From NCBI GenBank assembly GCA_039931435.1, contig JBDTRY010000001.1, positions 11,084-75,083 on the forward strand: DNA of 64,000 nt, given 5' to 3'. The position numbers and the translations under genes are program-made. This document shows positions 1 to 33,720 of this stretch, piece after piece; the first letter of the stretch is position 1; the number at the start of each line of letters is the position of its first letter. The notes beneath the pieces are model-generated. The model was given only the letters and a program-made list of their open reading frames with translations. It ran no database searches and had not been told where the DNA came from. Source of the DNA: Acidobacteriota bacterium. Its GTDB lineage: Bacteria; Acidobacteriota; Thermoanaerobaculia; Gp7-AA8.

Positions 1-3000
1 GTAGCCCGCAGGTCGCGAGGGTTCGTCGTTGGAATCGATGGCGTTGAGGTCGTAGACGCCGATGCCGAATCCGAACTGAGAGATCACGCCGTATGTCGTT
101 CGATTGCGGATGATGCGGAGACGATCGCCGGCGCGGGCAGCGATATTGGCGATGATCGCGGGAGTAAAGCTGGTCGAATCTCCAACCGCATCGCCAGACC
201 AGCGCATGTCCCGGGTGATGTTCTCAACCGTGATGCGCTGCAGGCGGTATGGATTCGCCGGATCGAAGGGCACCGTGACCCTGAGTCGTGCGAATCCTCC
301 ATCGAGCGGCTCGTCGCTGACGATCGACACGAGCGTGCGGAATGTCGCCAGGTCCACCTCTTCGCCAATGTCATCCTGAACGAGCAGCTGCAACTTCCGG
401 GGAATGGCCTCGGGGCGATCGGAAAGCACGGTGGCACTGCTCAGACCAAGTCCGCTGCTCACTCCCGGAGCCCAGGAAACGATCGCCGATGCGCCAGGCT
501 CGATGGACGCAGAACCACCCTCTCCGAAAAGGGACTCGAGTCGATAGGAACGGACAATTCCGAATTCCGGGGTCAGGCCTGTTGTGTAAAGGCGATTGTG
601 TCCGTCGCTGGCCACCGCCCAGTTGTCCGTGACTCCGGCGGGGATCGATGCAGCAAGCACCGGAGTGGCAGCGTGGGAAACGTCCCAGGCAGAGAGCCCG
701 CCGCTGAGAGCGGTGACGAAGAGCAGATTTCCGTTCAGGGACAGGTCGCGGATCTGGCCGCTGCTGATGTCGAACGATCCGAGATCGCCGCCCGGCTGCC
801 GAACCTGGAATCGCAGATCGAAGGGCTCAGTCAGCGGTGCAGTGGTCCCTCCGCCCGCCCGCGCCTGCCCGATGCGCATGCCATCCCGGTCTTGAATGTC
901 CTGACTGAGCCGCAGGCGGTAGAGGGCGCCGCGCGTCAGCGAGGATGGCAGATCGATGAGCAGCCGCCGGCCGTTGGAATCGAGCCGGTAGTGAACTCCG
1001 ACGACCGGGCCATAGGCAGGAACGTAACGAGGCGGAAGCGGATCGGGAGGACTCGCATCCTCTTCGAGGGTGAACAGCGACTGCAGGAACGAATCGACGC
1101 CGGCCTCGCTGCTGTCCGGCCCGGAGTTGATCGGCTCGCTGAATACAAGTGAAAGGAGGGTGCCCGGATCGACGTCGATCGTTGGCGCAGTGACAATGAC
1201 CTGATCGCCCACCGCAGCAGCTACCGCGTATTCGTTCGTGGCCAGGTCACGCGTGCGGTCGATCGTTCCACGTGTGGGGTCAAGAACGTTGATCGTGGCG
1301 TCCGCCGGAAGCTCGCTGGTGACGGGCACTTTGATTCTGGCGATTCCTCCCTGCAGCGTGACGTTCATTCCGGGGATCGAGGTGTCGGTGGCTCCCTCCC
1401 CGTTCAACAACACGGACTCGATGCGGAACGGAGTGCCGAAGACGGGATAGGGCCCGGCGGAATTGACGATGGGACTCTCGACCGTGACGCCGCTGCCGGG
1501 ATCGGTAACAGCGATGGGATCGTAGGCCTTTGAGAATGCCTGCTGTCCCGTGTTGGCATCGAAGCCCACGAGGGTGAACGGTTTGCCGCTGACGACCGGA
1601 AGGGCAACGCGACCGCGCTCGAGAAAGTAGGAGTGGGAGGCGTAGAGCGCTTCGTAGGTATCCCAGAAGAGGTCGTACTCAGGGTTCACGCCGTCGAGAA
1701 GAATCCATGCGGGGCTCGCCCCGGGCGGAACGTGCAGATCGACTACGGCGAAGATCCCGCTTCGTTCCAGCCCCAGCAGCGCATTCTTGACCTCGGTGCC
1801 GGTGAGGGTTTCGAGAGGCGAGAGGCGAGAGGCGAGAGGCGGGGGTTGAGAGGCGAGAGGTGAGAGGTGAGAGCTGAGAGGTGAGGCGTGAGAGGTGAGA
1901 GACGAGAGGCGAGAGGCGAGGGGTGAGGCTTGAGGCTCGTCGTTCATTGTCGCGCTGGTAGTCGCTGATTCGGTGGTGAAGTTGCCTCCGTCGAGGCGCA
2001 GGGTGTCGACGATCATGATTCGCGGGCCGCGAACGGATTGGCCCAGCGATCCGAGAAGGAAGTTGCGATTCGCAGTCAGAAGGCCGGAAGGAGTGGGAAG
2101 AGCGATCTCGAGCCGTTTCCTGGCGACGCATTCGATCGACGCCTGCGAACCACACCGGATCTCGACGCTGACGGCGGTGATGAAATCGAGGTCGTTGTCC
2201 AGGTTCGGGATGGCGGCGAACGGGTCTTTCCCTGTGGGTGCCACGTGGATTGTGGCCACGTCATCGAACGCCCCGGCCGGAACGTGAATCGTGATGCCGT
2301 CCTTCGAAGTGAAATCAGCGGCGTGATCCGGAGAGACGACAAACCCCTGGCCGTCCGACGTGACGAAAGGCGTGAGCGGAAGTACGGCCGCGACGTTCCC
2401 GGCACTGTTGATGACCTGAAGGTCGATGGAATCGGCGAGGGAGATCGAGTCGGGGCAGCGCGCACAACCGGCTTCAAACGAAAACGATCCATCGCTCGAA
2501 ACTGTAGCCTGATAGCGCGTTACGAAATCCACGCCACGTCGCACTGCCACCGCCTGCCATCCCGAAGTGATGGAGCCAGAGGTTCCGTAAATCCGGGACA
2601 CACCGTCCACAGGAATGGTGATGTGTATGCGGCGAGGGTCGACCGTGGAATCGGTGAGCTGGCTGATGGTCTCGAAGGTGAAGATCAGTGTCTGTCCGAG
2701 CGGCGTTCCGTTCGTGCCCCGGATTGCTGCCGACACGGTGACCATGTATCGGCCGTTGGGCTTCAGCCGCTCGCCGGGAGGTCGAGTCCACCCGAGACCT
2801 GCTGGATCGGCCGTGAGGATTCCGGGAACGATGGCGCCGGTGGCGTCGGTGAGCGACACCGCGCAAAGGCTCGTGCACGCGCCGGTCACCACCGAAGCCA
2901 CATCCAGGCCGGGGCTGACGTTGATGCGGATCGGCGTGGTCAGACTTACATTCTTCGCGCCATTTGCTGGCGTCGTGGATGTAATGACCGGGGGCTGCGG

Positions 3001-6000
3001 CGTGATGGGGAGATCGCCGATGCGCACAACCGATCCGAGGGCAGGGGCCGCGTTCGCGAGATATGCGGCGCCAGTTCCGGTGGTGGAGTGACGCGGCGTC
3101 AGGGCGAAGGGGGCGGCGGGCGCGGCCAGTACCGGTACGACGAAGAGACCGGAGGCGCGGGTGACGTCGGAGACGCCGAGCGCGGACGATCCTTGCGGCG
3201 TTCCGCCGGAAACGAGGGCATCGCCGAGGTAGATGCCGTCGCTGCGCAGGCGGACGGCGCCGGTGGCGAAGGCCAGAGGATTGTCCGCGACGAGCAGAAG
3301 GTAACGGCCTTCGTGGATGACGCCGTCGAGCGGAAGAATGGCGCGATCGATGGGAACAGTGGAAAGACGAGCGCCCGAAGGTGAAGGAGGAGGATCGATT
3401 GGGGCGACCTGTGCCACCATCCTGATGACGCGGCCGTAGGGCGTGGAGCCGAGAACTTCCGCGAGAATCAACTGCTCTGCGCCCGTCGCTGCATCGCGGG
3501 CAAAGGTGGCGCGGGCAGGCTTCAATAGCTCGAGCGGTGCGACAGCATTCTGCGCAGATGGATCAGCGGAATTTAGTGAGAGCTGGAAGCCGGCCAGGAT
3601 ACGAAATCCGGCGATCGCCCCGAACGACTGCAGCTCCTCCGCAGCGAGCGAGCTGGCCTGCGCGTGCAGCGCTTCATTCACGGCCCCTTCCGGAATCTCC
3701 ACCGCCACCCCGCTGTCCCCGGGCACGCGACCACCCTCGGGTCCCACCAGAGTTCCGCGGTCGAGCCTTCCGGGATAGGGCACCACGCGAACGTGATCGA
3801 ATCCGATCTCCAGGATGACCTGCGCAGCCCTGGGGCTCGGGGCGAGATGGAACCGGGCCTCGCCGGCGGCACCGTCGAGCGTGCGATAGATGAGGAGATC
3901 GGTGGCGAAGGGCGGATCGAGCACCGTCGAACCGTCCGCCAGGCGTAGTTCCTCATCCACCCAGGCCTGAACGGCCGTGCCGGATGGGAACTGTGGAGCC
4001 GGCGGCTGTGGCCCGTCGACGGAGATGCTGGCCACGGTCCTTCCCGTCGGGGCAACGATGGCCGGGTCGAGCGTGAAGCTTCGGGCGGTGAGAGAACATC
4101 CTTCCTCCAGCGAAGCACAGGAGTCGCTGATTCCCTGAAGCGGCGCGTTCCTCACCGGAGCCGGCGGAGAGACGCGTGGAGGCAGGTCACGATAGACAAG
4201 AGCGTACGATCCTGTAGTCAATATGTTGACTGTCACGGAGTCACCGCTGACACTCGCGGCGGGGTCGAGAACGATCCATTCGTCACGCTCGGAGTCGTAC
4301 TGAACGGCGGCCAGTGTCTGTGCTGCGCTGACGATGGCCGCTCCGGGAACGGCGAAGGTCAGGGCGGCGGAGGCCAGGCTGGAACGCTCCGGCTCCCGGC
4401 TCGAAGACACTTCGGCGGCTGCCAGCGGAGACCATCCGAGCGGAAGCAGACCGGGAAGGGCCTGGGCCCCGAGGGATGTGAGACGGATCGAGGTTCCGGG
4501 ATCGAGGCTGCCAGCGGGAACGTACAGAGTGACGCGACCACGCACGACGTCGGTACCTCCATCGCTCAGATCGAGATCGTCGCCGCTGGTGTCACCACTC
4601 TCCCCTCTCGTCTCGAGGCGTACATCGATGGGCACGACGCCCTGCCCCGCTGCGACGATAATCTGGCGCCAGGCTCCGGTGTGATCGGGCGCCGTAATTT
4701 GAATCGTGTGCGCGCCCTCGGGAACCCTGACCGTGTAACGGCCGCGGGCGTCGGTGGTTGCCGTGAATGTCTGTGCGGTGATCGTCGACTGCGCGGCGAG
4801 GGTTCTTCCCTCACCCGGCCCGGACACGGCGCGCGGGACTGAGCTCTTTGAGGTCTGGCTTCCCGTGACGCTCCCAACACTGAACGCATTCACGGGAACT
4901 TCTACGGTAACCGTTGCTCCGGCCAGCGGCCGGCCCGTGGTTGCGTCGAAGACTTCTCCGCTGATGAAACCGGATCCGTCTCCTGGCGGCGGCTCCTCGC
5001 CCTGGACCGTGAATGTCTGCGAGAACGCAGCGGTGAGGTTGTTTCCGGCCACGTCTTTCACGGCAGGGGTCACCGCCAGCGTGAACGTGATGGCGCTGAG
5101 GTCCTGTGCGGGTGCGATTGTCACCGAAGCGGGATTCAATACAGACACTGATCCGGATGCAGAGGTGCCAGAGGCCAGCTGCAAATGGACGGACCCCGAC
5201 GGTCCGACGGAGATGCTCGCCGGATCGACAGCTCCGGAGAAGGCGACGGTGATTCTGTTTGCTGTCCGATCGAAGGCGGCACTGAGCACCCGTACTCCGC
5301 CGCACACCGTCTGAAACGAGGATTCCGCCGCAGGCGAGAGCGAACCGTCGGCACCGGCAACGCGCACTCGCACGACGCGTACTCCTGCCTGTCCGGAAGC
5401 GGGAAGGCTGAACGAGAACCGCCCCGAGGAGTCGGCATCGGCGTTCAACACGAGAAGCCCGGACTGCAAACGAATTCTCGATCCCGATGGAGCGGATCCC
5501 GCGACGGTTACATTGCCGGTGCAGACGCCGATGATGGGGTCGAGCACGGGTGGTTGCAGCGGTGCAGTCGAGGCCACCGTAAATGAGGCGGCGAAGGGTG
5601 TGGCCAGGATGTTCCCGCCGAGGTCCTGGGCGCCGGTTGAAAGGGCGATGGTGTAACGCTCGCCGGCGGTGAGCAGGGCAGCGGGGCTGAAACTGAGCAC
5701 ATCGTTGTCGACATTGAAACTTCCGGTGACTGGCGTGCCACTCGAGGATCGAAGGGTGAAGGCGCCGCTGGTGGATGTGCCCTGCATGGCTGCAGAGAAA
5801 GAAACGAGGATGATCGCGCCGTTCTCGACGCTGAGTGCTCCATCCGCGGGAAACGTCTGCAGCACACGAGGAGCGGATGTCAGGTTCGTGACCCGGATGA
5901 GATCGACGGCCGAACGTCCGTCGGGCTGTCTCACTCTGGCCACGATCTGCGTAAGGCCGCTCGTCGAGAATGGCACGGTAGCGGTGAATCCCGACCCGCT

Positions 6001-9000
6001 GACGGCCGCGCTCGCACCGTTCACTTCCACCGTCGATCCCGGCGTTGCAGAGAAGGCACCGCTCACGGCGAGAGAAGCGCCCTCAGCGATTCCGAATACG
6101 GAGTTATCGAGCGGTTGGGCGATGGAAATGGATGGATCGCCGCTGACACCCGTGACGCTGATCAACGCCGAAGCCTGTCTGCCGAGCTGATCGCGTGCAG
6201 TGACGCTGATGGAGTTCACTCCGGCGGCCAGCGGTACATCCCCGCGGAAGGTTCCCGAAGAATCGTTGCGGCGGGTGGTGGTTCCAGGTGTCGACGCTCC
6301 AGTGGTCACATTGGTGAGAACAACAGTGGACGGATCGAGGCGGCTCCAGGTTCCCGAAACACGGAGGCTCGTACTACCTGTCGAGAAATTCTCCGCCGGT
6401 GCGGTGATGGTCAGGATTGGCTGTCCGGCGATTCTCGTCACACGCCGTGACGCCTGGCCCAGGCCATTGCCGGCATTGCGGCCACGGGCGACGAGAATAT
6501 TCGCTCCGTCGCTCAGGGGCACGTTCGCAGCGGTGAACGTACCGGCATTGATGACTGCGGAGACGCCGTTGACGTCAGCGGAGGTCGCGCTGGCGTCGAT
6601 CGTTCCCGAGACAGTGATTGACGTATCGGCCGTCGCCAGTCCCTCCTCCGGAGTGGTGATGGTGATCGACGGGTTGCCAGTGACGCGGAAAAAGGTCAGC
6701 GTCACAGGATTGCCCGTTGCAGCACCGGCGGCATCGGCGCATGAAATGGTGAAGACGTTCGCCCCTTCGCTGGGCAGCTCGAGGGTGGCAAGGAAGGACG
6801 ACCCGGCCATGGTTGTGCTGGCTCCGTTCACCTTCACCCCGGCGGCACCGCCGCTCTGCCCGGTGAGAAGCACCGAAGAGGCTGTGACCACGGAATGGTC
6901 GGCGGGATCGAAATCGCGAAGATCGCAGCCACCGACCGTGGAGTTTGCGCCGATGGAGAAATTGCGTTCCATCCGAGTTTCGTTCCCCGCGGCATCGCGG
7001 CCGGTGGCGATGGCCGTGTGGCCGCCGGGAACGTTGACCGTAGCCGGCGAAGTGACGGGAGCGCCGTCGATATTCAACCGCGAGGTGACCGTCGAAGCAT
7101 CCGTTGCGTTCACGGAGATCACAGCCTGGCTGGGGAAGGTGGCCCCTTCGGACAGAGGCTGGCCCGATTCCAGGATCTCCAGAGATGGCGGCGTGAAGTC
7201 CCCTCGCACATGCACAGAAATTTGTGCACCGGCAGCACTTCCTGCAGAGACCGTGACCGTAATCGTGTTCTCCCCTTCGGCCAATGGCAGAGCAGCGAGG
7301 ATGAAATCGCCCGCTGAATCGACCGCGACGTCGGTGGCATTGATTCGGACCGACGAGCTCCCGGGCTTGAGCAGCCTTCCGCTGACGCGTGTGCTCGTTC
7401 GATTGGTGATCAGACCCTCGGGAGGCCAGGTAAGAATGATTCCGGTCGTTGCCGTCTCGCGGGTGACCACTACCTGGTCACTGCCGATGTTGCCCGCTGC
7501 GTCCGCAGCGGTGGCGGTGATCACCGTTTCGCCGTAGTCCAGCGGGAGGGAGGCGAGCAAAAACGATCCCGAGGTCACGGCTGAGCGAATGCCGTTCACA
7601 GTGGCCGACGACGATTCGGTTGCGGTGCCACGAACCTCGACGGTGCTCCCCTGGACGGCACCGGCGACCGGCGATGTGATTTTCACCACCGGCGCGGATT
7701 GATCGATGACGAAGCTTGTCTGCGCGTGACCCGAATGCCCCTGCGCATCCGTGGCGTCCGCTGTGACGGAGTAGCTGCCTTCGGCAACAATCGACGTCCC
7801 TGGAGTGAACGCAGCTCCATTGAGTTGAGCGGAAATCGTGGCCGGTCCATCTGTGCGAACGGTCGGCGCGATGGGATGGTTGAAGAGCGTGCCCGGAGCG
7901 ATGGGCAACCCGTTCTCCACGATCTCCACGCCGGGCGCTTTTGTATCGACTGTCACCCGGTACTCCGTTCGCGAACTGTTTCCGGCACGGTCGGTGGCCA
8001 CGAGCGAGAAGCGATTGAGCCCCTCGATGAACGGAACTCCGCTGAGGGTGAAGGACCCATTGGCCGGAACTGCGCCCACCGGCGTTCCGATCAGCGCCAC
8101 TTCGACAGCATCGGCGTCGGTCGTTCCGCCGATCGACGAAGGCATCGTAGCGACGCTGCTCCCGTCCGTTGGAGTGAGATTGCGCACGACGGGCGGGGTG
8201 GTGTCGATCTCGAAGTCGACGGTGCGCTCGGCCCTGTTGCCTGCGCAATCGACGGCCACGAGGGTGAGACGGTGACTGCCCTCAGCGGAGATGGCGGTTC
8301 CCGGAACGAACGGTGTCCCGTCCAGCGTGGCCACCAGCGAGGCTGACGGGTCGAGATCGGAGGCGCGCACAGAAAGCGAGACGGGCTCGTTCGCGAGAGC
8401 CGCGTCGAACGGCAGACCGCCGCGAGTTACTTCGATTGCCGGGGCCGTGCGATCGATGATCACCGTCCGGACGATCGAGGTGCGATGACTGGCGGAATCC
8501 AGAGCCTCCACCGTCAGCGACGCCCGGCCTTCCGGCATGTCTGCCAGGGTTGCGGTGAACTGCCCCGTTCCTTTGTCCAGCACGACCGGAGCGCTCACGG
8601 TTCCGTTGCGTACCTCGACGCGGTCGATGTGAGGATCGCTGGCCGTGCCCGTGACGGAGAGCGATCCCGTGCTCACGCAGGCAGCAGCGCCCGGTGACGA
8701 AAGAACGAGCAGCGGTGGCTGTGAATCGACGACGAGATCGATCGATGCCGTGGCAACTCGGCCTGAAGTCGACCGAGCTGTGGCCGTGACTACGTTCGCC
8801 CCTTCATTGAGCGGGACCGCCGCCGAGAACGCGCCGGCAACGACGTCGAATGCGGCGTTCACTCCATTCACGGTCACGGACTGCGCGTTCGCCGCGCGGC
8901 CCGTCACGGTGACGAGCAGTACGGGAACGATCTGGCCGCCCGATCCGGGAGAGGCAATGGACACCGTGGGATCGCCGCTCCCGCTTGCATGGGAGATTGA

Positions 9001-10299
9001 AAAATTCAATCGTGCTGTGGCGCGGTTGCCTGCAGCATCGATGGCTTCCACTTCGATCGTGTGCGGCCCATCCGCGGAAACGACTGCCAGCGACGCATAG
9101 GGAACTCCGTCGAGCGTTGCCGACGAAGTGAAGGTGGAGGCGTCGGTGACGCGGATCTCAATCTGTACATCACGTCCGAAGGCTGCCCCTTCAGCGATGG
9201 GCAGTCCGGACTCGAAGAAGGCGATGACCGGGGGAATGGTGTCGACCGGCCCACCAGTCTTACTTATGATGAATCGCCACTCCACACTGGAGCTGTTGCC
9301 GGAGGAATCGGTCGCCTGGACGACCAGTGTGTGCACTCCCTCCGCGGTGATCGGGGCGAGCGATGTGTAGTCGTTGCCGTCGAGCCTGGCCGTGGAGGTG
9401 AAAGCCGACTGATCGGAAACGCGGATCTCGATGCGTACATCGCGATCGAAGACAGCGTCCTGTGTGAGCGGAGATCCCGACTCGAAGAGCTCGATCGTGG
9501 GCGGAAAGATATCGGCGGGAGTCTGGCCGGTCCCATTCGTGGCGGTGAGCGCGATGTCGTCGAACAGGGCGTCCGGCAGTCTCTGATCGTCGCCGGGCTG
9601 GACGGCTCGTGTCCGGCTGACCCGCGCGGCCCACAGTCCGAAAGTTCCGCCGGACGGACGGACGGCGCGGGCATCCAGAGCGTTGATACTCCACGTCTGC
9701 GGCTCGATCGTCCCGTCAGGCCAGAAACGAGCGCGAACGAGATTGCCATCGTCGAAGCTGTCGATGCTCACAGCGAAGCGGTACCACCGCGAGGTGGGGA
9801 TCGTCGTCGCTGCGTCCGTGACTCCTGACAACGGAGCGTCTCCAGCAAACAGCTGCATGCGCAGAGCGTTGCCGTTCTTCCCCGGCCAGAGCCCGATCAG
9901 GTAAGGCGCCGGCTTCTCTGGCAGAGAGGCCAGAAGTGCCACACCCACACGCGTCTCACCGGCGCCGCGGAACAGCCGGCCGCGCAACTCCATGTGTCCG
10001 CGCGCTGGCAATGAAAGATCGGGCCGCGCTGAGATCGTACCGATAGCCGGACTCTCTCCGGCAGGACTGCCAGAGCTCTGGCGAACTCCGTAAGCCTGGT
10101 TCTGCGGATCGAGCGGATCGCGCCAGACCACAAATGCAGAGGGCGGCGCAGGTTGCAACAGGGCGAGAGCGACGTCCGTCCACCCGGCCGGATGGGTACC
10201 GGCGGCGATCGACTGAAAGTCTTCCGTAACGGAGACGGCACTCTGAGCGAAGGCCGTAGCGGGAGCGAACGACGTCCACAAGAGAATTACGAGAGCCAT
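1..10299 (-). CDS. Giant secreted repeat protein B (partial; at least 3,433 codons, 3' end beyond window position 1). Signal peptide, Ig-like/CarboxypepD_reg-like repeats, PLASRLS heptad linker, LVIVD-type beta-propeller-like C-terminal segment.
   Basis: ATG at 10299..10297 gives MALVILLWTSFAPATAFA|QSAVSV, a Sec-type signal peptide. Hand translation of 10299->9600, 1980->1800 and 120->1 in this frame is stop-free. Every minus-strand ORF listed in the track between 1 and 10299 lies in one of the other two frames, as expected if this frame is one uninterrupted ORF cut by the window edge (the track omits edge-truncated ORFs). Last visible residues ...GVISQFGFGIGVYDLNAIDSNDEP resemble the VYDIS/VWDVSDPS beta-propeller motifs of the adjacent giant gene. 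Confidence 0.8.
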   Translation of the reverse strand, partial: MALVILLWTSFAPATAFAQSAVSVTEDFQSIAAGTHPAGWTDVALALLQPAPPSAFVVWRDPLDPQNQAYGVRQSSGSPAGESPAIGTISARPDLSLPARGHMELRGRLFRGAGETRVGVALLASLPEKPAPYLIGLWPGKNGNALRMQLFAGDAPLSGVTDAATTIPTSRWYRFAVSIDSFDDGNLVRARFWPDGTIEPQTWSINALDARAVRPSGGTFGLWAARVSRTRAVQPGDDQRLPDALFDDIALTATNGTGQTPADIFPPTIELFESGSPLTQDAVFDRDVRIEIRVSDQSAFTSTARLDGNDYTSLAPITAEGVHTLVVQATDSSGNSSSVEWRFIISKTGGPVDTIPPVIAFFESGLPIAEGAAFGRDVQIEIRVTDASTFTSSATLDGVPYASLAVVSADGPHTIEVEAIDAAGNRATARLNFSISHASGSGDPTVSIASPGSGGQIVPVLLVTVTGRAANAQSVTVNGVNAAFDVVAGAFSAAVPLNEGANVVTATARSTSGRVATASIDLVVDSQPPLLVLSSPGAAACVSTGSLSVTGTASDPHIDRVEVRNGTVSAPVVLDKGTGQFTATLADMPEGRASLTVEALDSASHRTSIVRTVIIDRTAPAIEVTRGGLPFDAALANEPVSLSVRASDLDPSASLVATLDGTPFVPGTAISAEGSHRLTLVAVDCAGNRAERTVDFEIDTTPPVVRNLTPTDGSSVATMPSSIGGTTDADAVEVALIGTPVGAVPANGSFTLSGVPFIEGLNRFSLVATDRAGNSSRTEYRVTVDTKAPGVEIVENGLPIAPGTLFNHPIAPTVRTDGPATISAQLNGAAFTPGTSIVAEGSYSVTADATDAQGHSGHAQTSFVIDQSAPVVKITSPVAGAVQGSTVEVRGTATESSSATVNGIRSAVTSGSFLLASLPLDYGETVITATAADAAGNIGSDQVVVTRETATTGIILTWPPEGLITNRTSTRVSGRLLKPGSSSVRINATDVAVDSAGDFILAALPLAEGENTITVTVSAGSAAGAQISVHVRGDFTPPSLEILESGQPLSEGATFPSQAVISVNATDASTVTSRLNIDGAPVTSPATVNVPGGHTAIATGRDAAGNETRMERNFSIGANSTVGGCDLRDFDPADHSVVTASSVLLTGQSGGAAGVKVNGASTTMAGSSFLATLELPSEGANVFTISCADAAGAATGNPVTLTFFRVTGNPSITITTPEEGLATADTSITVSGTIDASATSADVNGVSAVINAGTFTAANVPLSDGANILVARGRNAGNGLGQASRRVTRIAGQPILTITAPAENFSTGSTSLRVSGTWSRLDPSTVVLTNVTTGASTPGTTTRRNDSSGTFRGDVPLAAGVNSISVTARDQLGRQASALISVTGVSGDPSISIAQPLDNSVFGIAEGASLAVSGAFSATPGSTVEVNGASAAVSGSGFTATVPFSTSGLTQIVARVRQPDGRSAVDLIRVTNLTSAPRVLQTFPADGALSVENGAIILVSFSAAMQGTSTSGAFTLRSSSGTPVTGSFNVDNDVLSFSPAALLTAGERYTIALSTGAQDLGGNILATPFAASFTVASTAPLQPPVLDPIIGVCTGNVTVAGSAPSGSRIRLQSGLLVLNADADSSGRFSFSLPASGQAGVRVVRVRVAGADGSLSPAAESSFQTVCGGVRVLSAAFDRTANRITVAFSGAVDPASISVGPSGSVHLQLASGTSASGSVSVLNPASVTIAPAQDLSAITFTLAVTPAVKDVAGNNLTAAFSQTFTVQGEEPPPGDGSGFISGEVFDATTGRPLAGATVTVEVPVNAFSVGSVTGSQTSKSSVPRAVSGPGEGRTLAAQSTITAQTFTATTDARGRYTVRVPEGAHTIQITAPDHTGAWRQIIVAAGQGVVPIDVRLETRGESGDTSGDDLDLSDGGTDVVRGRVTLYVPAGSLDPGTSIRLTSLGAQALPGLLPLGWSPLAAAEVSSSREPERSSLASAALTFAVPGAAIVSAAQTLAAVQYDSERDEWIVLDPAASVSGDSVTVNILTTGSYALVYRDLPPRVSPPAPVRNAPLQGISDSCASLEEGCSLTARSFTLDPAIVAPTGRTVASISVDGPQPPAPQFPSGTAVQAWVDEELRLADGSTVLDPPFATDLLIYRTLDGAAGEARFHLAPSPRAAQVILEIGFDHVRVVPYPGRLDRGTLVGPEGGRVPGDSGVAVEIPEGAVNEALHAQASSLAAEELQSFGAIAGFRILAGFQLSLNSADPSAQNAVAPLELLKPARATFARDAATGAEQLILAEVLGSTPYGRVIRMVAQVAPIDPPPSPSGARLSTVPIDRAILPLDGVIHEGRYLLLVADNPLAFATGAVRLRSDGIYLGDALVSGGTPQGSSALGVSDVTRASGLFVVPVLAAPAAPFALTPRHSTTGTGAAYLANAAPALGSVVRIGDLPITPQPPVITSTTPANGAKNVSLTTPIRINVSPGLDVASVVTGACTSLCAVSLTDATGAIVPGILTADPAGLGWTRPPGERLKPNGRYMVTVSAAIRGTNGTPLGQTLIFTFETISQLTDSTVDPRRIHITIPVDGVSRIYGTSGSITSGWQAVAVRRGVDFVTRYQATVSSDGSFSFEAGCARCPDSISLADSIDLQVINSAGNVAAVLPLTPFVTSDGQGFVVSPDHAADFTSKDGITIHVPAGAFDDVATIHVAPTGKDPFAAIPNLDNDLDFITAVSVEIRCGSQASIECVARKRLEIALPTPSGLLTANRNFLLGSLGQSVRGPRIMIVDTLRLDGGNFTTESATTSATMNDEPQASPLASRLSSLTSHASPLSSHLSPLASQPPPLASRLSPLETLTGTEVKNALLGLERSGIFAVVDLHVPPGASPAWILLDGVNPEYDLFWDTYEALYASHSYFLERGRVALPVVSGKPFTLVGFDANTGQQAFSKAYDPIAVTDPGSGVTVESPIVNSAGPYPVFGTPFRIESVLLNGEGATDTSIPGMNVTLQGGIARIKVPVTSELPADATINVLDPTRGTIDRTRDLATNEYAVAAAVGDQVIVTAPTIDVDPGTLLSLVFSEPINSGPDSSEAGVDSFLQSLFTLEEDASPPDPLPPRYVPAYGPVVGVHYRLDSNGRRLLIDLPSSLTRGALYRLRLSQDIQDRDGMRIGQARAGGGTTAPLTEPFDLRFQVRQPGGDLGSFDISSGQIRDLSLNGNLLFVTALSGGLSAWDVSHAATPVLAASIPAGVTDNWAVASDGHNRLYTTGLTPEFGIVRSYRLESLFGEGGSASIEPGASAIVSWAPGVSSGLGLSSATVLSDRPEAIPRKLQLLVQDDIGEEVDLATFRTLVSIVSDEPLDGGFARLRVTVPFDPANPYRLQRITVENITRDMRWSGDAVGDSTSFTPAIIANIAARAGDRLRIIRNRTTYGVISQFGFGIGVYDLNAIDSNDEPSRPAGY
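1812..1937 (-). repeat. Heptanucleotide tandem repeat, (YGAGAGG) x 18 units (plus strand); 126 bp, partly degenerate (4 perfect CGAGAGG units at 1812-1839). It lies inside the coding frame of giant gene B and encodes 6 heptad repeats (PLASRLS/SLTSHAS/PLSSHLS/PLASQPP/PLASRLS).
   Basis: Read directly from sequence: cgagagg cgagagg cgagagg cgagagg cgggggt tgagagg cgagagg tgagagg tgagagc tgagagg tgaggcg tgagagg tgagaga cgagagg cgagagg cgagggg tgaggct tgaggct. All three minus-strand frames are stop-free across it (the track ORF 1679..2155 is another frame through the same repeat). Confidence 0.85.
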
Positions 10300-10468
10300 G
10301 AATCGACAGCTGATGACGCCATCAGCGATCCATTTCGCAGCTCCGTCCGCCGGTACCCAATCGCGCCACGGTCTGATGTTCAAACGGTCTCCCGGACTCT
10401 TCTTATCGAAGCGTTGACGTGCCTCGTATGCGGCAAAAATCGCATCATTCATTGGTCTCCGCATCGCC

Positions 10469-13400
10469 TCACGGCGCTGTGAGCGTAAAAATCTGCTCCT
10501 CGGTGGCAACGTAGATCGTGTTCAGGAACACCTCCACATCGACTGCATTGCCGGGCGTTTTCTGTGTGCCCAGCAGGAGAGGGTTTTGACGGTTCGTGAT
10601 GTCCAGAAAGGCCAGGCCGGAGGAACCACTTGCGACCAGCAGTTGATTGCCGGCGGTGACGGCCATGCCGCTGCCAGCCCCAGGCAATGGAACCAGCTTC
10701 ACGAATTGCGGGTCTGCCGGATCACTGAGGTCGACCACGGCCAGCGCGTTCGCATACTCGTAGTAATCGCCGGTGGCGTAGAGCGTCGTGCCATCAATGA
10801 AGCCGTTCACTGCATCGAAGTCCGGAATATCCAGCCTGCCCACAACAGACAACGCCGCAGGGTCCCGCCGGTCGATGACCGTGACATCCTGGACCACACC
10901 AGCCACCACGTCCGCGGAGATGGCCACGAGGTAATCGCTGCCCAGCAGTTTCAGGGACTGAACCCGCGGGAGTGAGGAAAGGGTGGAGACAAAACTCAGC
11001 GATGGCAGAGCGGAAATGTCGTAGACACTGATGCCCTCTCCCTCGGCTGTCGTAAATGCGTACGTGGAGTCCAGAGCCAGAGCGACGGTGGCCTCCTGGC
11101 TGGAGCTGGTCACCGGCGTTGGGTTCGGCTGCGAAAGATCGATTGCCGTCAGACCAGTGCCGGTGGCCAGAAGCCAATGGCCATTCAGAGCAACATCGCT
11201 AATCCACAAGCCCTCGTCCAGAACAGGGATCAGCCGGGAGGGAGTGACGGGCGTTACCTGCGAATCGAAGGCGAGCACCTGGTTCGAGCCATCACTGGCA
11301 AAGAAACTGAAGCCGCCGGAAAGAACGAGGTGTTGGGCATCGATTGCCAGCCGGCGGCCGATGAAGCTCGTGTCTCCGTCCGTATCGGTTGCAGTGATCC
11401 GACGCGTCGCCGTGCTGCTCGCGAATGGGACGGTTCCGATGATTCGTGTATTGGATTTGCCCGCACCATCCGTGGCCGTGAGCAGGATCGACTCCCCCGG
11501 GTCGGCGATGAGCGTCATCGTTAACGAGCCGTCGGCCGGTACGGATGCGGAAGCAGTCGTCCCGGAGCGGCTGGCCTGCACAGCGACGACGAGTGGTGGC
11601 TTCCCGCTGATCGATCCTGGTGCGCCTGTGACCGAAGCATTGCTGCCTGTACGGTCAATGACGATGGCACTGGGGTCTACGATGGGCGGGGCCGTGGACG
11701 TGTAGGAACGCAGTTCCGAATCCGCAGCAACATACAGGGTTCCACGATGCAGAAGTACGTCCCACGCGACCGAAGCAGTGGGCTCGAGAGAAATCGATCG
11801 CGGCGCGGCGAGATTGCTGACGTCCAACATCTCCGTGCCTCCGCTCTCCGCCACGACCGCCCGGGAACCGGCGAGATCGACTCCCCGGGCGCTTCCGGAG
11901 GTCGTGACGGCTCCGATCAACCGCGGGTTGGCCGGGTCGGTGAGGTCGACCGTACCCAATCGACCATCGGTTCCGGTGATAAAGAGAGTTGACCCTACGA
12001 TGCGACCGCGGAAGGCGCGCAGTCCGGGGATGCCCAAGGTGCTTATGACCCAGGGATAATCCGGATCGCGACGATCCATGATCAGGACGTCGTGGTCCCC
12101 CGAGACGTCCTCGGTGGCACTCAGGCCCACCAGATAATCATCGCCGTAGGGCAGTAGAGCGGTGATGGAGACAGCACTTGGATAGAGGAGATCCTCGAAC
12201 AGCCTCCTCGGCTCGGAAGGATCCGATACGTCCCAGACGTCGAGGTATGTACCCGAGGTAGTCTTCCACGAACCATAGAGATAGGTGCCCGCCAGGGCTA
12301 TAGCCTCGGTGGGTGCGGTCGTGGTGAGCGCATGAACGGACGGCGTACTTTGATCGAGTGCAAACGTACTCAGCGCGTTGGAGGCTACGAAGGCCCACCC
12401 CTTCGCGGCGAGAACGTCGTTGACCGGCCCGTTGCCCGTGGAGACGGTGGTCACGTAGGCCGGAGCGCCGGGGTCATTCAGATCGAAGATCACAACCTTG
12501 TCCGATCCGCCCTCGCCGGCATCGTCATGGCTGGCAAGGAGAAGGCGATCGCCGTCAGCAGCGACTTGTCGAGCGCGGAAATTACTGTCACTGATGTCCG
12601 CGGTGACAGGCACGGATATGAACGGATCGGGTGGGGCACTCCCTACGACGACAGGCCCGAGACTGTTCACCCCGTCCGAAGCGGTGACGGCCATCGTTTC
12701 GCCGGTGAGGCCAGCGATCGAGGCGCTGAACGAACCGTCGGCGTTCACGGAAACCGGTCCGGCCGTGGTCGACGCGGACTGATTGGTGACGGTCGCCGAG
12801 ATCGATCCCGTGCCGGTGATGGATCCCGGAGAACCCGTCAGGACAACAACGCCCGCAGAGGACTTCGTCAGGGCGATCGCGCTCGCCAGAATGTTCAGGT
12901 CAGCGGAGAAGGCGGGGACCGTTCCGATGGTCACCGGCCCGCGGGACAGACCTCCGCGATCGGAGGCCAGCAGGGTCAGGGTGTCGCCGGTGGCCGCGGT
13001 GATCGTCACGCCGAACGAGCCGTCGGCCGCAACCACTGTCGTCGCCGTGGCACCTGATTCCGCATCCATGACCTGAACGGCGAGCGGGGCTCTGCCCGTT
13101 ACGGTTTGGGCCGGGCCTGTAACCCGCGCCTCCGTTGCAGAAAGCGGCTGTATGGAAATCCCGCCAACTGCAATCGTGGGTGGCGACGGCGCATCGATGA
13201 AGACCAGTCCCTTGCCGTTCGCCACGTATACGCCTTCGGCAGTCCTCGCTGAATCCCAGGCATAGCCGTCGATGGCAGTCGTGGAAGTGATCAATGGTGT
13301 CGATGGATTGGATACATCGACAGTGACCAGCCCGGCGAATCCGCAGGCAATGGTCACGGTAGAGCCAGCAACTTCGAGCGTTTGACCGTTCGCCGGGAGA

Positions 13401-16400: not shown

Positions 16401-19400
16401 AGGGTAGGAACAGCGGGGTTGCTGCTATCGAGAATGGCGACGACCGGAGAGACACCGTCGGTGGCACTGGCAGGGTAGGAGGAGACAGCGATGACACTTC
16501 CATCATTAGCCACGCGGCGCGCCCTGAACGCTGCATCACTGGTCCAGGTGGACTTCTCGATCTGGGTGGTGCCGGTCTCCAGAGCCAGCGTTCCAACGAC
16601 AACGCGTGCCGAATCCAGAGGGAGCGGATTGGAATCCCGGGCGATGAGGGAGATCGTGTCACCGCTCTGGCCGTCCACGACGACGGCAAACGAACCGTCT
16701 ACGTTGGCTTGTGCAGAGTAGAGAGAGGATGTGCGGTCGTTCCTGGCAATAAGAAGAATGGGCAGATCGGGATCTGTGACCGCACCAGGATCTCCGATGA
16801 TCGAGAGGCCGGCCAGAGTGATCCTCGCTGCATCGAGTGCCGGTGCGCCGGCGTTTCCGGTGATCGTGCCCACATCGAGGAAAGCCGTCTCCAGCGGATA
16901 CGGATGCGAGTCGAGAGCCTTGATGGCCACGACATCGCCCCCCTGGCCAGTGACCGGAATGCTGAACGAACCATCCGCACCGGCAGTCCCGGTGAAGGTC
17001 TGGTCCGTGCGGTTGTTGCGCACGGTGATGGCCAGCGGCTGGTCCGGATCGAGAACGGCACCGGCGAGGCCCACGAGCGAATAGCCGCTGACGTTCCCGA
17101 CGAGGGAGATCTTCGTCGTGTCGACGAGAGGAGCGCCGGTGTTGGCACTGACCAGCGTGGAAGCGGAGTCCTTGTCGATCGTGGACGAACTCTCGAAGTA
17201 ATCGTTGGTCAGGACGTGAGCGTTGCGCAAAACGACCGAGTCGAAACGATCGAGGCCACGGAAGGGAGCGCCGACGGTGGCGCTCAGAGAATTCGCAGAA
17301 ACATCTACCGTGATCGTCTCCGTGTCATTGGCAAGTACAGGCCAGGTAACGCTTCGATCGCCGCCGACGACGAGCCGCAGTCCCTTGAGATGGTCCGGCC
17401 CGAGGAAACTGGCGCCGGTGGTGTGGACCGAATTCGAGGTGAGGGAGTCTGCCTGCCGCGAATCGATCATGACCAGATCGGTGGTCATCGTCGAAAGCGA
17501 TGAGTTAGAAACGATAAGGGAACCGTACGGCGCGGCCGTCGGCTTGAAGTAGATGGTTCCCGCCGCGCCACGCCTGGCGTCATTGGACTCCGTGTTATCG
17601 CCGCCCGACGCGGTGATATTGCTACCGGCGAGTGTCGAGGACGTGAATCGCAGGGCGACCCTCCCCCCTCCTCCGCCGGTGCCGCGCTGCAAGGATCCCT
17701 CCGGATGCACCCCCCGCCCTCCATCGGCATGAATCTGTCCGCTCCCGGACAGAGTCAGGGCGCGGATATTCACACTTCCACCGGCACCGGCTCCGTACGC
17801 GCTGTCCGCCCCGTTTGCTCGAACGAGGCCATCAAGAACAAAGCGGTTCGAATCGAACATGACCACACCGCCACCGCCACCGCAGCTTGTGCAATCACCT
17901 TCCCCGCCGGCAGCGCCGGGAGTATCGGGATCGAACAGCGATCCGAACGTGAACCCTCCGCCCGCGCCACCCCGCCCTCCGTGACTGCCGCCCACGCCCT
18001 GGGGGCTGCCACCAGCGAGGCTGCCTGGCCATGTACGTCCCACCCCTCCGACAGAATCGGAAAATCCGCGGCGGGACGCGTCCACGACTCCATTGCAGGA
18101 GACGAAGACATTGTCCGCGGTGACCTGCAGACGTTTGATCAGAGAGATCTGGGTAGGCGGATGCGTAACCGCGGCGCCGTCGAGAACCACGAAGTTGGTG
18201 AAGGAGTGCGGACCGTCGATCGTTGCCGTGCCACCCTGCACGATCAAAGTCTGGTTGTCCCAGGAGAGATCCGAGGCCGAAATCGTGGTGTCGTTGCCAA
18301 TCGTGCGGCCGGCCACAACGGTGATTGTTGACGTCGCTTCTTCCTCGAGGCCTGCAACGTTCGTGGCGTGGGCGTGAACGGTAACAACCGTCCCGGCAGG
18401 CGCATCCACCGGAATCGTGTACGTACCCTCGAACTGGCCGGAAGCTCCGGGAACAGGCGTGGCAGGGATGGCATCGGGCACGCCATCGACGAAAAACTCG
18501 ATCGTCTGCACCGGATTGGAAGTGTTCCCCGCGCTGTTCCCGATCGCGGAGATACGCAGGCGCATGGCATAGCCGGCGGGTGCCCTGGCTCCGTCGGAGC
18601 CGCACAGCCACGTGACGACCGGCGCCTTCGCATCGACCAGCGGCTGAATCAGCAATGCGATGGACTTTGTGGTGACGTTCGGCACGTAGTCACTGGCCAC
18701 GACCGTGAGCGACTTCGATACCGGATCGGTCCCATCGACGAAGGGCACCGGGATGTCCGCGGTGAAATCCGTGGCGTTGATCGAGGTCATGACCACCGGA
18801 GGCGTCCCCTCAAGCTCCGCGGTGACACTCTTCAGGCCCACTTCAGAATCCGTTGCCCGTACACGAACCTGGATCTTGTTTCCGGCTCCCTCTTCGAATA
18901 GCGCATCGTTCGCCGGACTGAGGATCGTCAGCGCTGGCGCTCCACTGTCTTCGAGGATGGCGAGCTGGGAAGTCACGTCCGCGCTGCTCTGCCCCGTGGA
19001 GTCGGTGACGTGGGCAGTGAAGGTTGCTTGAGACGGGCCCTTCAAAGCGGGCGGGAGGTCGAAATCGATCTCCGCCGCGGGCCAGGGATCGCCGGCGGTA
19101 TCGCGGCGCACTTCGACCGACTTCGAGGCCGCGTACGTGCTGCCGTCCGACTGCGTCCCGGCAACATTCACCTGAACGCTAACGAGGACGCCTTCATCGG
19201 CAAAGCGGACCTGGGCGTGCACCCGTTTCCCGGCGTAACTTTCAGTCGAGGGAGTGAGGATGACGCTCACATTGTCCGGGACATTGTCCTGAACGACACT
19301 CCAGGTGATCTCTGAGGGATCGCTCACGTTCAGCGACAGGTCAGTGGCGATGGCGCGCAGAGTGAGCGTCCCTTCGCCCGGCAGAGTGGGGGCCACGAAC

Positions 19401-33294: not shown

Positions 33295-33384
33295 TCAGAG
33301 CGTAGCGGATATCGCGCGCGGAGGATAGCACGGGGGCGATTGCGGCGCGGACCGGCACCCGCGGGGGTGCGCAGAGCAACGCGT

Positions 33385-33720
33385 CAGTCCCTCGGCCCCG
33401 CTCCGCCTGGAGAGCGGGGGTGTGGCGAGCGAACGCGAGCCGGGTGAGGGGCGCGGCGCACGATTAGGACGAAGTACGAATGTTGAATGAAGAGACTCAG
33501 TCCCTCGTCCCGCCTCCGGGAACAGGGTGGCGAGCGAACGCGAGCCTGGTGAGGGGCGCGGCGCACGAGAAGGACGAAGTACGAATGTTGAATGGAGAAT
33601 GTTGAATGTTGAATGCAGAGACTCAGTCCCTCGTCCCGCCTGCGGGAGCAGGGTGGCGAGCGAACGCGAGCCGGGTGAGAAGCGCGATTCGGAACAGGAG
33701 CCAACGCGTCCAAGCATTTG
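33385..33720. repeat. Tandem direct repeat, 3 copies of a roughly 110-120-bp unit (core ...cagtccctcg.cccgc...ggtggcgagcgaacgcgagccgggtgaggggcgcggcgcacga...gacgaagtacgaatgttgaatg), in the intergenic region upstream of parC.
   Basis: Three aligned copies starting about 33393, 33500 and 33620. Copy 2 carries an extra gaatgttgaatgttgaatg triplication. The third copy is truncated and diverged at its 3' end. Confidence 0.8.

Follow-up and report, generated by a model that had tools for sequence, protein, structure and literature searches.

A tandem array of 18 heptanucleotide units lies within giant gene B, at the left end of the window analysed here, a 64-kb stretch of Acidobacteriota contig JBDTRY010000001.1. 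The array is probably a microsatellite born of slippage, now decaying, that acts as a passive spacer in a disordered linker of variable length. A preliminary description of the sequence had named a decayed simple-sequence linker as the alternative to a phase-variable locus. This alternative fits better, given the decay of the units, the predicted disorder, the variation in length among homologues and the lack of codon bias.

The heptanucleotide tract

The tract is 126 nt long and consists of 18 head-to-tail 7-mers (window positions 1812-1937), with the consensus unit CCTCTCG on the coding minus strand, which is CGAGAGG on the plus strand. Read on the plus strand, seven of the 18 units are CGAGAGG and four are TGAGAGG. 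The remaining seven are one to three bases off (CGGGGGT, TGAGAGC, TGAGGCG, TGAGAGA, CGAGGGG and, twice, TGAGGCT). Direct reading confirms the 18-unit, 126-nt tract in the frame of gene B that had been described, and the four perfect CGAGAGG units reported at its plus-strand 5' end are found at 1812-1839. The formula (YGAGAGG)18 is correct as to period and count, but only 11 of the 18 units match YGAGAGG exactly. Tandem Repeats Finder (TRF) describes positions 1812-1920 with a period of 7, 15.6 copies, 82% matches and a score of 120, and additionally gives period-14 and period-28 descriptions that overlap the tract.

When up to two mismatches are allowed, the 14-mer (CGAGAGG)2 has 10 matches in the window, compared with 2.1 expected from shuffled sequences. 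No shuffle reached 10 matches, and eight of the 10 fall inside the tract. The heptamer tract is real and far beyond chance. By TRF and the shuffle test it has the three or more head-to-tail 7-nt copies, above chance, that mark the long simple sequence repeats (LSSR) and the short tandemly repeated repetitive sequences (STRR) of bacteria. The run at 1812-1839 is the sole perfect simple sequence repeat (SSR) in the window with a unit of at least 5 nt and at least four copies, and is the sole part of the tract with appreciable slippage potential. No homopolymers of 8 nt or more were found in the window, nor were other perfect SSRs beyond two hexamers in three copies. A scan of the window against Rfam at gathering thresholds gave zero matches.

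Table 1. Positions of the array, its reading frame and associated features in the 64-kb window
Feature	Position	Strand	Remarks
Heptanucleotide tandem array, 18 units	1812..1937	minus (coding)	TRF period 7, 82% matches
Longest perfect run, four CGAGAGG units	1812..1839	minus	3' end of tract in gene orientation
Second perfect run, two CGAGAGG units	1903..1916	minus	
Two identical variant units, AGCCTCA AGCCTCA (coding strand)	1924..1937	minus	5' end of tract
First stop, alternative frame offset 1	1743..1745	minus	22 codons past tract
First stop, alternative frame offset 2	1679..1681	minus	44 codons past tract
Predicted disordered segment (tract and a few flanking residues)	1816..1959	minus	AlphaFold2 model residues 227-274
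Giant gene B, at least 3,488 aa	1..10464	minus	ORF and Pfam; C-terminus cut by window edge
Ser/Thr/Gly/Ala-rich insertion in CarboxypepD_reg of gene B	~4745-4900	minus	codons ~1875-1925
Second giant gene, 5,521 aa	10469-27034	minus	directly upstream of gene B
Tandem repeat of ~105-126 nt, ~2.7 copies	33384-33690	plus	apparently intergenic; GAATGTT run in each copy

Reading frame across the tract

The sole long open reading frame (ORF) over the tract is a minus-strand frame that is free of stops across 1..10521 and exits the left edge of the window. The tract forms codons 2862-2904 of the 3,507 that are visible, which places it ~82% along the visible ORF. Because homologues extend ~330-400 residues past the window edge, the tract would lie roughly 75% along the estimated full-length protein. 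It is translated as EPQASPLASRLSSLTSHASPLSSHLSPLASQPPPLASRLSPLET, that is, about six PLASRLS-like heptads, in agreement with the preliminary description.

Three units of 7 nt give a period of 21 nt, or seven residues, so that the same heptad is read in three frames in shifted register. Stop codons are absent from the CCTCTCG unit whichever forward frame is read, and the three minus-strand frames all stay open through the tract. The tract thus shares with contingency loci a unit that is not divisible by three inside an ORF, as had been pointed out. The preliminary description had also proposed that the downstream alternative frames be checked. They stop 22 and 44 codons past the tract, and the true frame is open for 603 further codons, to the window edge. 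If one or two units were gained or lost, the protein would be truncated, as it had predicted, here after 22 or 44 codons and with at least 603 residues missing. Because homologues run on past the edge, some 950-1,100 residues would be lost in reality.

The linker site in homologues and in the predicted structure

The gene B protein was searched against a database of 5.8 billion sequences, and a scan of metagenomes added 32 loci at a similar distance. The closest relatives in the database are partial proteins, 35-42% identical, from metagenome-assembled genomes (MAGs) labelled Thermoanaerobaculia or Acidobacteriota. No relatives above ~46% amino-acid identity were found in the protein database or among the metagenome contigs. 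In the alignments the tract sits between two conserved blocks, '...GPR(L/I)M.VDTLR...G.F(T/S)T' and 'TLTG.D.K.YL...SG.Y'. At this site ~38 homologues, of 35-46% identity, have 19-39 residues without a repeat, the exception being P0001/L002 with 55. Many homologues keep a '[LR]R[VI]xVxS' motif there, and 'SRLSSLTS' in the window may be a remnant of it. The linker in the window is ~35-40 residues longer than those of the homologues.

An AlphaFold2 model was made for residues 2629-3119 (window 1165-2637) from a 9-sequence alignment. Its mean predicted local distance difference test score (pLDDT) is 82. Model residues 227-274, which cover the tract, score 29-36 and have no secondary structure, and the blocks on either side of them are confident beta-rich domains with pLDDT of 85-97. 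The low pLDDT, together with the short repeat-free linkers of the homologues, indicates that the tract encodes a lineage-specific, probably disordered insertion in a variable linker or loop.

It is very improbable that the array is an artefact of assembly, a low-complexity stretch that was collapsed, expanded or joined chimerically and whose unit number and frame are therefore unreal. The window is probably a metagenome-type assembly, since none of its proteins is on record and the homologues all come from MAGs, and a tandem repeat of ~126 nt approaches the length of a short read. Assembly error is nevertheless unlikely because the frame continues into conserved sequence, with the 603 open codons after the tract aligning with homologues in conserved blocks right behind it. 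In addition, the units are degenerate enough for unique placement, and similar in-frame arrays are present in independent assemblies from different projects.

Growth and decay of the array

Compared with a perfect (CCTCTCG)18 array, the tract has 23 substitutions, of which 7, 9 and 7 are at codon positions 1, 2 and 3, respectively. This even spread, with no third-position bias, gives no sign of purifying selection on the tract at the amino-acid level. Conservation follows the DNA unit: positions 4 to 6 of the unit (CTC) are invariant in 18, 17 and 18 of the 18 units, and position 7 is divided equally between G and A, nine units each. Neighbouring units resemble each other more than they do when the order of units is shuffled (p = 0.012). 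This is a signature of slippage, in which units are duplicated locally. The side-by-side AGCCTCA pair suggests that one unit was duplicated after it had mutated.

Replication slippage would have created the CCTCTCG array in the DNA for a poorly constrained, surface-exposed and disordered stretch of the protein. With a total length that is in frame (126 nt, 18 units), the array is translated as a flexible spacer rich in Pro, Ser, Leu and Ala. A unit that is free of stops and gives the same heptad in every frame means that any frame-restoring array would simply be translated in this way. Point substitution has later decayed the array regardless of codon position, leaving the perfect runs of four and two units, and the tract would now act as a passive linker. 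Such a tract could be tolerated because the linker is disordered and variable in length and because the unit has no stop in any frame. A slip of one or two units would cut the protein short and probably leave it defective, so that it would be an occasional deleterious mutation rather than a programmed switch.

Slippage-derived low-complexity linkers normally stem from repeats of 3 nt or of multiples of 3 nt. The tract resembles such linkers of large surface proteins in its predicted disorder, in the length variation of homologues at the site, in its Pro/Ser/Ala/Leu-rich composition and in the lack of codon-level constraint. It differs in that the 7-nt unit gives a 21-nt (7-aa) period and each single-unit step shifts the frame. 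Read as a passive linker, the tract is of small importance, being a further microsatellite that is tolerated as a flexible spacer. The 7-nt unit is slightly unusual, as the repeat in gene B can persist only for as long as its overall length remains in frame. The tract shows how a stop-free heptamer that gives the same heptad in three frames gets absorbed into a protein.

Some observations weigh against a passive linker. A 21-nt (3-unit) periodicity, sought in the tract as the mark of frame-preserving growth, was not found. With a 7-nt unit, this means that the history of the tract probably included out-of-frame states or multi-unit jumps, and these would also be the behaviour of a switching locus. 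Four perfect units persist, which leaves room for further slippage. Selection on the sequence, rather than neutrality, could account for the invariant CTC core and for the near-perfect conservation of a short array shared by the homologous loci L002 and L139 (described below). The prediction of disorder is built on the shallow alignment of nine sequences, in which the insert is present in the query alone.

There are two good period-7 arrays in the window, the one that starts at 1812 and a GAATGTT x4.7 array at 33583. The latter belongs to a larger tandem repeat (Table 1) whose copies are 93-94% identical and spaced 105 and 126 nt apart. One copy has 1.7 GAATGTT units and the next has 4.7. The difference in spacing, 21 nt, is exactly three GAATGTT units, so heptamer unit number does change in this genome.

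Phase variation as an alternative

The preliminary description saw in the tract the signature of a phase-variable locus. As a contingency locus, the CCTCTCG array would slip by one or two units and toggle gene B between the full-length protein and a form without its last ~950-1,100 residues, so that a subpopulation of cells displays a different cell-surface protein. The frame arithmetic of this proposal stands, as the unit is not divisible by three, the frames are open and the alternative stops lie within 22 and 44 codons; a long and perfect tract, a 5'-proximal position and further such loci in the window, which are also expected of a contingency locus, are lacking. Phase-variable genes often encode surface proteins, and gene B encodes a giant secreted protein with immunoglobulin (Ig)-like domains. 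The proposal is also consistent with the four perfect units that remain, with the differing heptamer number of near-identical paralogous repeat copies in this genome, and with the lack of 3-unit periodicity, by which growth of the array probably passed through out-of-frame states. There is a precedent in hmw1A of Haemophilus influenzae strain PittAA, where an intragenic (AATTTTG)14 tract, 3.5 kb into the 7.3-kb ORF of this adhesin, is associated with a frameshift (PMC2651432). In the same species AACAACC is repeated 8-13 times within a homologue of HI1369, a TonB-dependent receptor gene, and both tracts have been put forward as mediators of phase variation (PMC2651432). Like these, the tract in gene B has a 7-nt unit in a very large surface-protein ORF, is not 5'-proximal, and would shift the frame on a change of unit number.

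The state of the tract is different. Tract repeat number determines the rate of switching (PMC11868660, PMC2651432). The H. influenzae tracts of 8-14 units are given as (unit)n without mention of variant units, and characterised heptamer tracts span 8-38 units (PMC2651432), whereas the gene B tract is degenerate, with 82% matches, and its perfect runs are of four and two units. A long, perfect, hypermutable tract is therefore lacking. Repeats are enriched near N-termini in species presumed to use phase variation (PMC3315296), whereas this one is ~75% along the protein, although a shift there still removes at least 603 residues. Other hypermutable SSRs are absent from the 64-kb window, as are homopolymers of 8 nt or more, and the window thus has nothing like the several loci of a phasome. 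Neither alternative frame joins another long frame before it stops. H. influenzae tracts differ in number among strains, some being out of frame, but the arrays of the gene B family are all in frame, and that of L002 and L139, at the same site, has kept its unit number at 66% nucleotide identity. The site is predicted to be disordered, is variable in length and has substitutions without codon-position bias. Phase variation at the tract is unsupported rather than refuted, and it seems unlikely. If the length were found to vary within populations, this would be a rare case of phase variation by SSR outside host-adapted pathogens, in a soil bacterium that is free-living.

Arrays in the gene B family

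A survey of unselected homologous loci identified 12 heptamer arrays besides that of the window, with ~3.4-4.7 units each. Locus L001 has four arrays, one of CACTCGC and three of CCTCTCG, one of which is in a downstream RHS gene. L002 and L139 have CTCGCCC arrays at the linker site that holds the tract in gene B, and L139 has a second array, of CCCCTGC. Two ATTCTCA arrays are present in L131, three arrays in L142 (CAATCCT, AATTTTC and ATCCTCA) and one CAGCACT array in L130. With the window's included, 13 of 13 arrays in the family are inside ORFs, and in 12 of them the frame is open for hundreds of codons in either direction. The remaining one (L001 9680) is followed by 71 open codons, because the gene is broken further downstream, away from any repeat. 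Every array observed inside a gene of a related genome is in open frame, and a small number of loops or linkers hold several of them.

The broken gene is in L001 1-23789, part of a 497-kb Thermoanaerobaculia-type contig, where the orthologue of the giant gene is broken up into about nine ORFs. Within this series there is a toxin-antitoxin pair of the PIN/MazE type, and after it come RHS/YD-repeat genes. One of these itself contains an in-frame CCTCTCG array, of 3.6 units, at 18720-18744. The frame break, near 9930-10001, does not coincide with a repeat, and may be either a long-read error or a real pseudogene.

One loop, 'ARATF...LILAELL', holds arrays in three loci: L130 (2152-2175), L131 (2192-2222) and L142 (2182-2213). 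These are near-perfect, with the units CAGCACT, TTCTCAA and ATCCTCA, respectively, and the array, of 33-36 nt, replaces the usual 39 nt without added length. The three loci fall in different clades of a neighbour-joining tree. No repeat is present at the equivalent of this loop in the window (codons ~2336-2350, ~3472-3516 on the minus strand).

L002 and L139 are sister lineages that are 62% identical in amino acids and 66% in nucleotides. Their CTCGCCC x4.3 arrays (L002 1880-1909 and L139 1388-1417), which encode LAPRPSSLAPS, are identical at 32 of 33 nt and 11 of 11 aa and have the same number of units, in a linker whose flanks around the array cannot be aligned. Short imperfect arrays at the linker site can therefore be very stable. 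The conservation could be due to selection on the motif or to a small conversion or transfer event. As the window is a lone deep branch in the neighbour-joining tree and is not sister to L002 and L139, common ancestry of its array with theirs is disfavoured. It is more likely, to judge from the tree, that the two arose independently.

Units tend to be shared within a genome, in 2 of 2 arrays in L131, 2 of 3 in L142 and, within one mismatch, 4 of 4 in L001. This sharing, the same loop being hit in three lineages that are not sisters, and the presence of arrays at the gene B linker in two separate clades could be read in another way. Thermoanaerobaculia-type genomes would have lineage-specific heptamer families (CCTCTCG/CGAGAGG, GAATTGA/TCAATTC and variants) that spread by active copying or conversion, without a separate origin at every site, and repeatedly occupy or overwrite the same surface loops of the giant Ig proteins, possibly diversifying or switching them. 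This is considered distinctly unlikely. The wider pattern is nonetheless of interest, in that units are common to Thermoanaerobaculia genomes and arrays recur in the same giant-protein loops.

Heptamer arrays as a class

Heptanucleotide repeats are reported to be the most abundant class of long SSR in many bacterial genomes (Mrazek et al. 2007, as summarised in PMC4679880). In PMC4679880 and PMC4692102, polymerase slippage is given as a possible cause of this abundance, and the repeats are described as mostly intergenic, often with about four units. Known examples are the cyanobacterial STRR, GGGAATC in Xanthomonas and GGGGA(T/C)T in Nostoc (PMC4692102), and the TAACTGA repeats of Beggiatoaceae (PMC4679880). 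A search for the CCTCTCG unit or its peptide found no mention of either in the searchable literature library. To our knowledge, the literature does not explain how lineage-specific families of heptamer repeats originate in bacteria.

A scan of a genome collection for the exact 21-mer (CCTCTCG)3 identified this array, or a longer one, in at least 120 genome stretches. These belong to many phyla, and some genomes have several. Among the CCTCTCG matches listed, TRF found 188 period-7 arrays (77 of them of other units), compared with 5 and 15 of periods 6 and 8, in loci that had been selected for carrying CCTCTCG. In the unselected homologous loci and the window, the excess is weak, with 22 arrays of period 7 versus 11, 14 and 31 of periods 6, 8 and 9. 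Among 125 listed CCTCTCG arrays, 16 cross a long ORF (at least 120 open codons on each side) and 109 do not. Arrays were also considered as a cause of frameshifted genes elsewhere, and this was rejected. A screen flagged 13 'frame-switch' cases, of which the five that were inspected proved to be arrays between adjacent genes, and the broken orthologue in L001 is interrupted at a place without a heptamer array.

In Thermoanaerobaculia-type genomes, CCTCTCG arrays are found in the window, in L001 (three) and in L006, L007, L026, L053, L054, L081 and L082, and GAATTGA, which is equivalent to ATTCTCA, in L007, L081 and L131. The Thermoanaerobaculia or Acidobacteria loci L053, L026, L081, L007, L006, L003 and L028 have several heptamer arrays per 8 kb. 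The recurrent units in these are CCTCTCG/CGAGAGG, GAATTGA/TCAATTC and GAATGAA. The arrays are often inverted pairs, 50-350 nt apart, and the unit tends to be common within a genome.

The arrays of these genomes resemble prokaryotic LSSRs with units of 5-11 nt. They have head-to-tail 7-nt units, with period 7 well above 6 and 8 in the listed loci that carry the unit; they are typically of ~4-5 units, compared with the preference for four in PMC4692102; their units are favoured by lineage; and they are mostly intergenic, with occasional inverted pairs. The array in the window would belong to this broader class of many, mostly intergenic heptamer arrays, which is seen in related Thermoanaerobaculia-type genomes and is presumed for this one. 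Unlike usual LSSRs and STRR, the gene B tract is not intergenic but deep in a coding sequence; it is translated, decayed and much longer than 4-5 units. It is an atypical, translated member of the heptanucleotide LSSR class. CCTCTCG also differs from the G-rich heptamers and is unable to form a quadruplex.

CCTCTCG was considered as a special dispersed element, and this was rejected. Among the matches listed, no conserved sequence is shared in the flanks of CCTCTCG arrays, so the array is not a mobile element with conserved ends. Other heptamers are abundant. In viral contigs, the unit is present in 5 and three composition-matched control heptamers in 4, 8 and 11, and with control heptamers about as frequent the unit is not special in itself.

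The repeat might also be kept for its own sake, as a selected (S/P)LA(S/P)R(L/P)S-type site for spacing, processing or modification, or as a 7-nt CTC/GAG signal in nucleic acid that is bound by a protein or affects the mRNA. In favour of this are the CTC core, near-invariant while other positions vary, the conservation of the LAPRPSSLAPS array of L002 and L139 within an unalignable linker, and the recurrence of identical or related units both inside single Thermoanaerobaculia-type genomes and from one such genome to another. Direct repeats of a heptamer can be bound by cold-shock proteins, with one protein on each heptamer, as discussed in PMC4679880. However, the ~38 homologues that lack a repeat at the site indicate that the protein works without one, the substitutions show no codon-position bias, and the conservation of the core is partly explicable by the copying of variant units through slippage. 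The similarly common control heptamers of the viral contigs and the lack of any Rfam match in the window are further points against it. Selection for the repeat itself appears quite improbable, and the passive, slippage-born spacer remains the preferred reading.

Gene B and its neighbour

Gene B has its start codon between 10464 and 10299. It has a signal-peptide-like N-terminus and many bacterial Ig-like domains, and its Pfam domains are Glucodextran_B (eight copies), Big_5, Big_13, Big_3_3 and CarboxypepD_reg. The 'Ig-rich body' of the preliminary description is borne out by Pfam. The 'propeller-like C-terminal segment' is not, since in the C-terminal part that is within the window Pfam gives just a weak Big_5 match (E 0.012). 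LVIVD is recorded only for the homologue P0003.

The beta-sandwiches that flank the tract (window 1165-2637) are nearest to the ZU5-ZU5(-UPA) tandems of ankyrin in Foldseek (probability 0.96-1.0, with low template-modelling score). There is a faint Pfam match to ZU5 around the tract in the same region of the minus strand (E 0.11). ZU5-like domains are unusual among bacterial surface proteins.

In the CarboxypepD_reg domain of gene B, the loop that precedes the 'GRYTV' strand contains ~55 inserted residues rich in Ser, Thr, Gly and Ala (Table 1). Heptamer arrays occupy the equivalent loop region in the homologues L131 (979-1010) and L142 (838-866). The insertion in gene B may be an older, fully decayed array.

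The second giant gene, upstream, has Pfam matches to CarboxypepD_reg (eight), Big_5, SpaA, SdrD_B, LVIVD (four), Big_6 and Beta_propel. Its stop codon is a few bases from the first candidate start of gene B.

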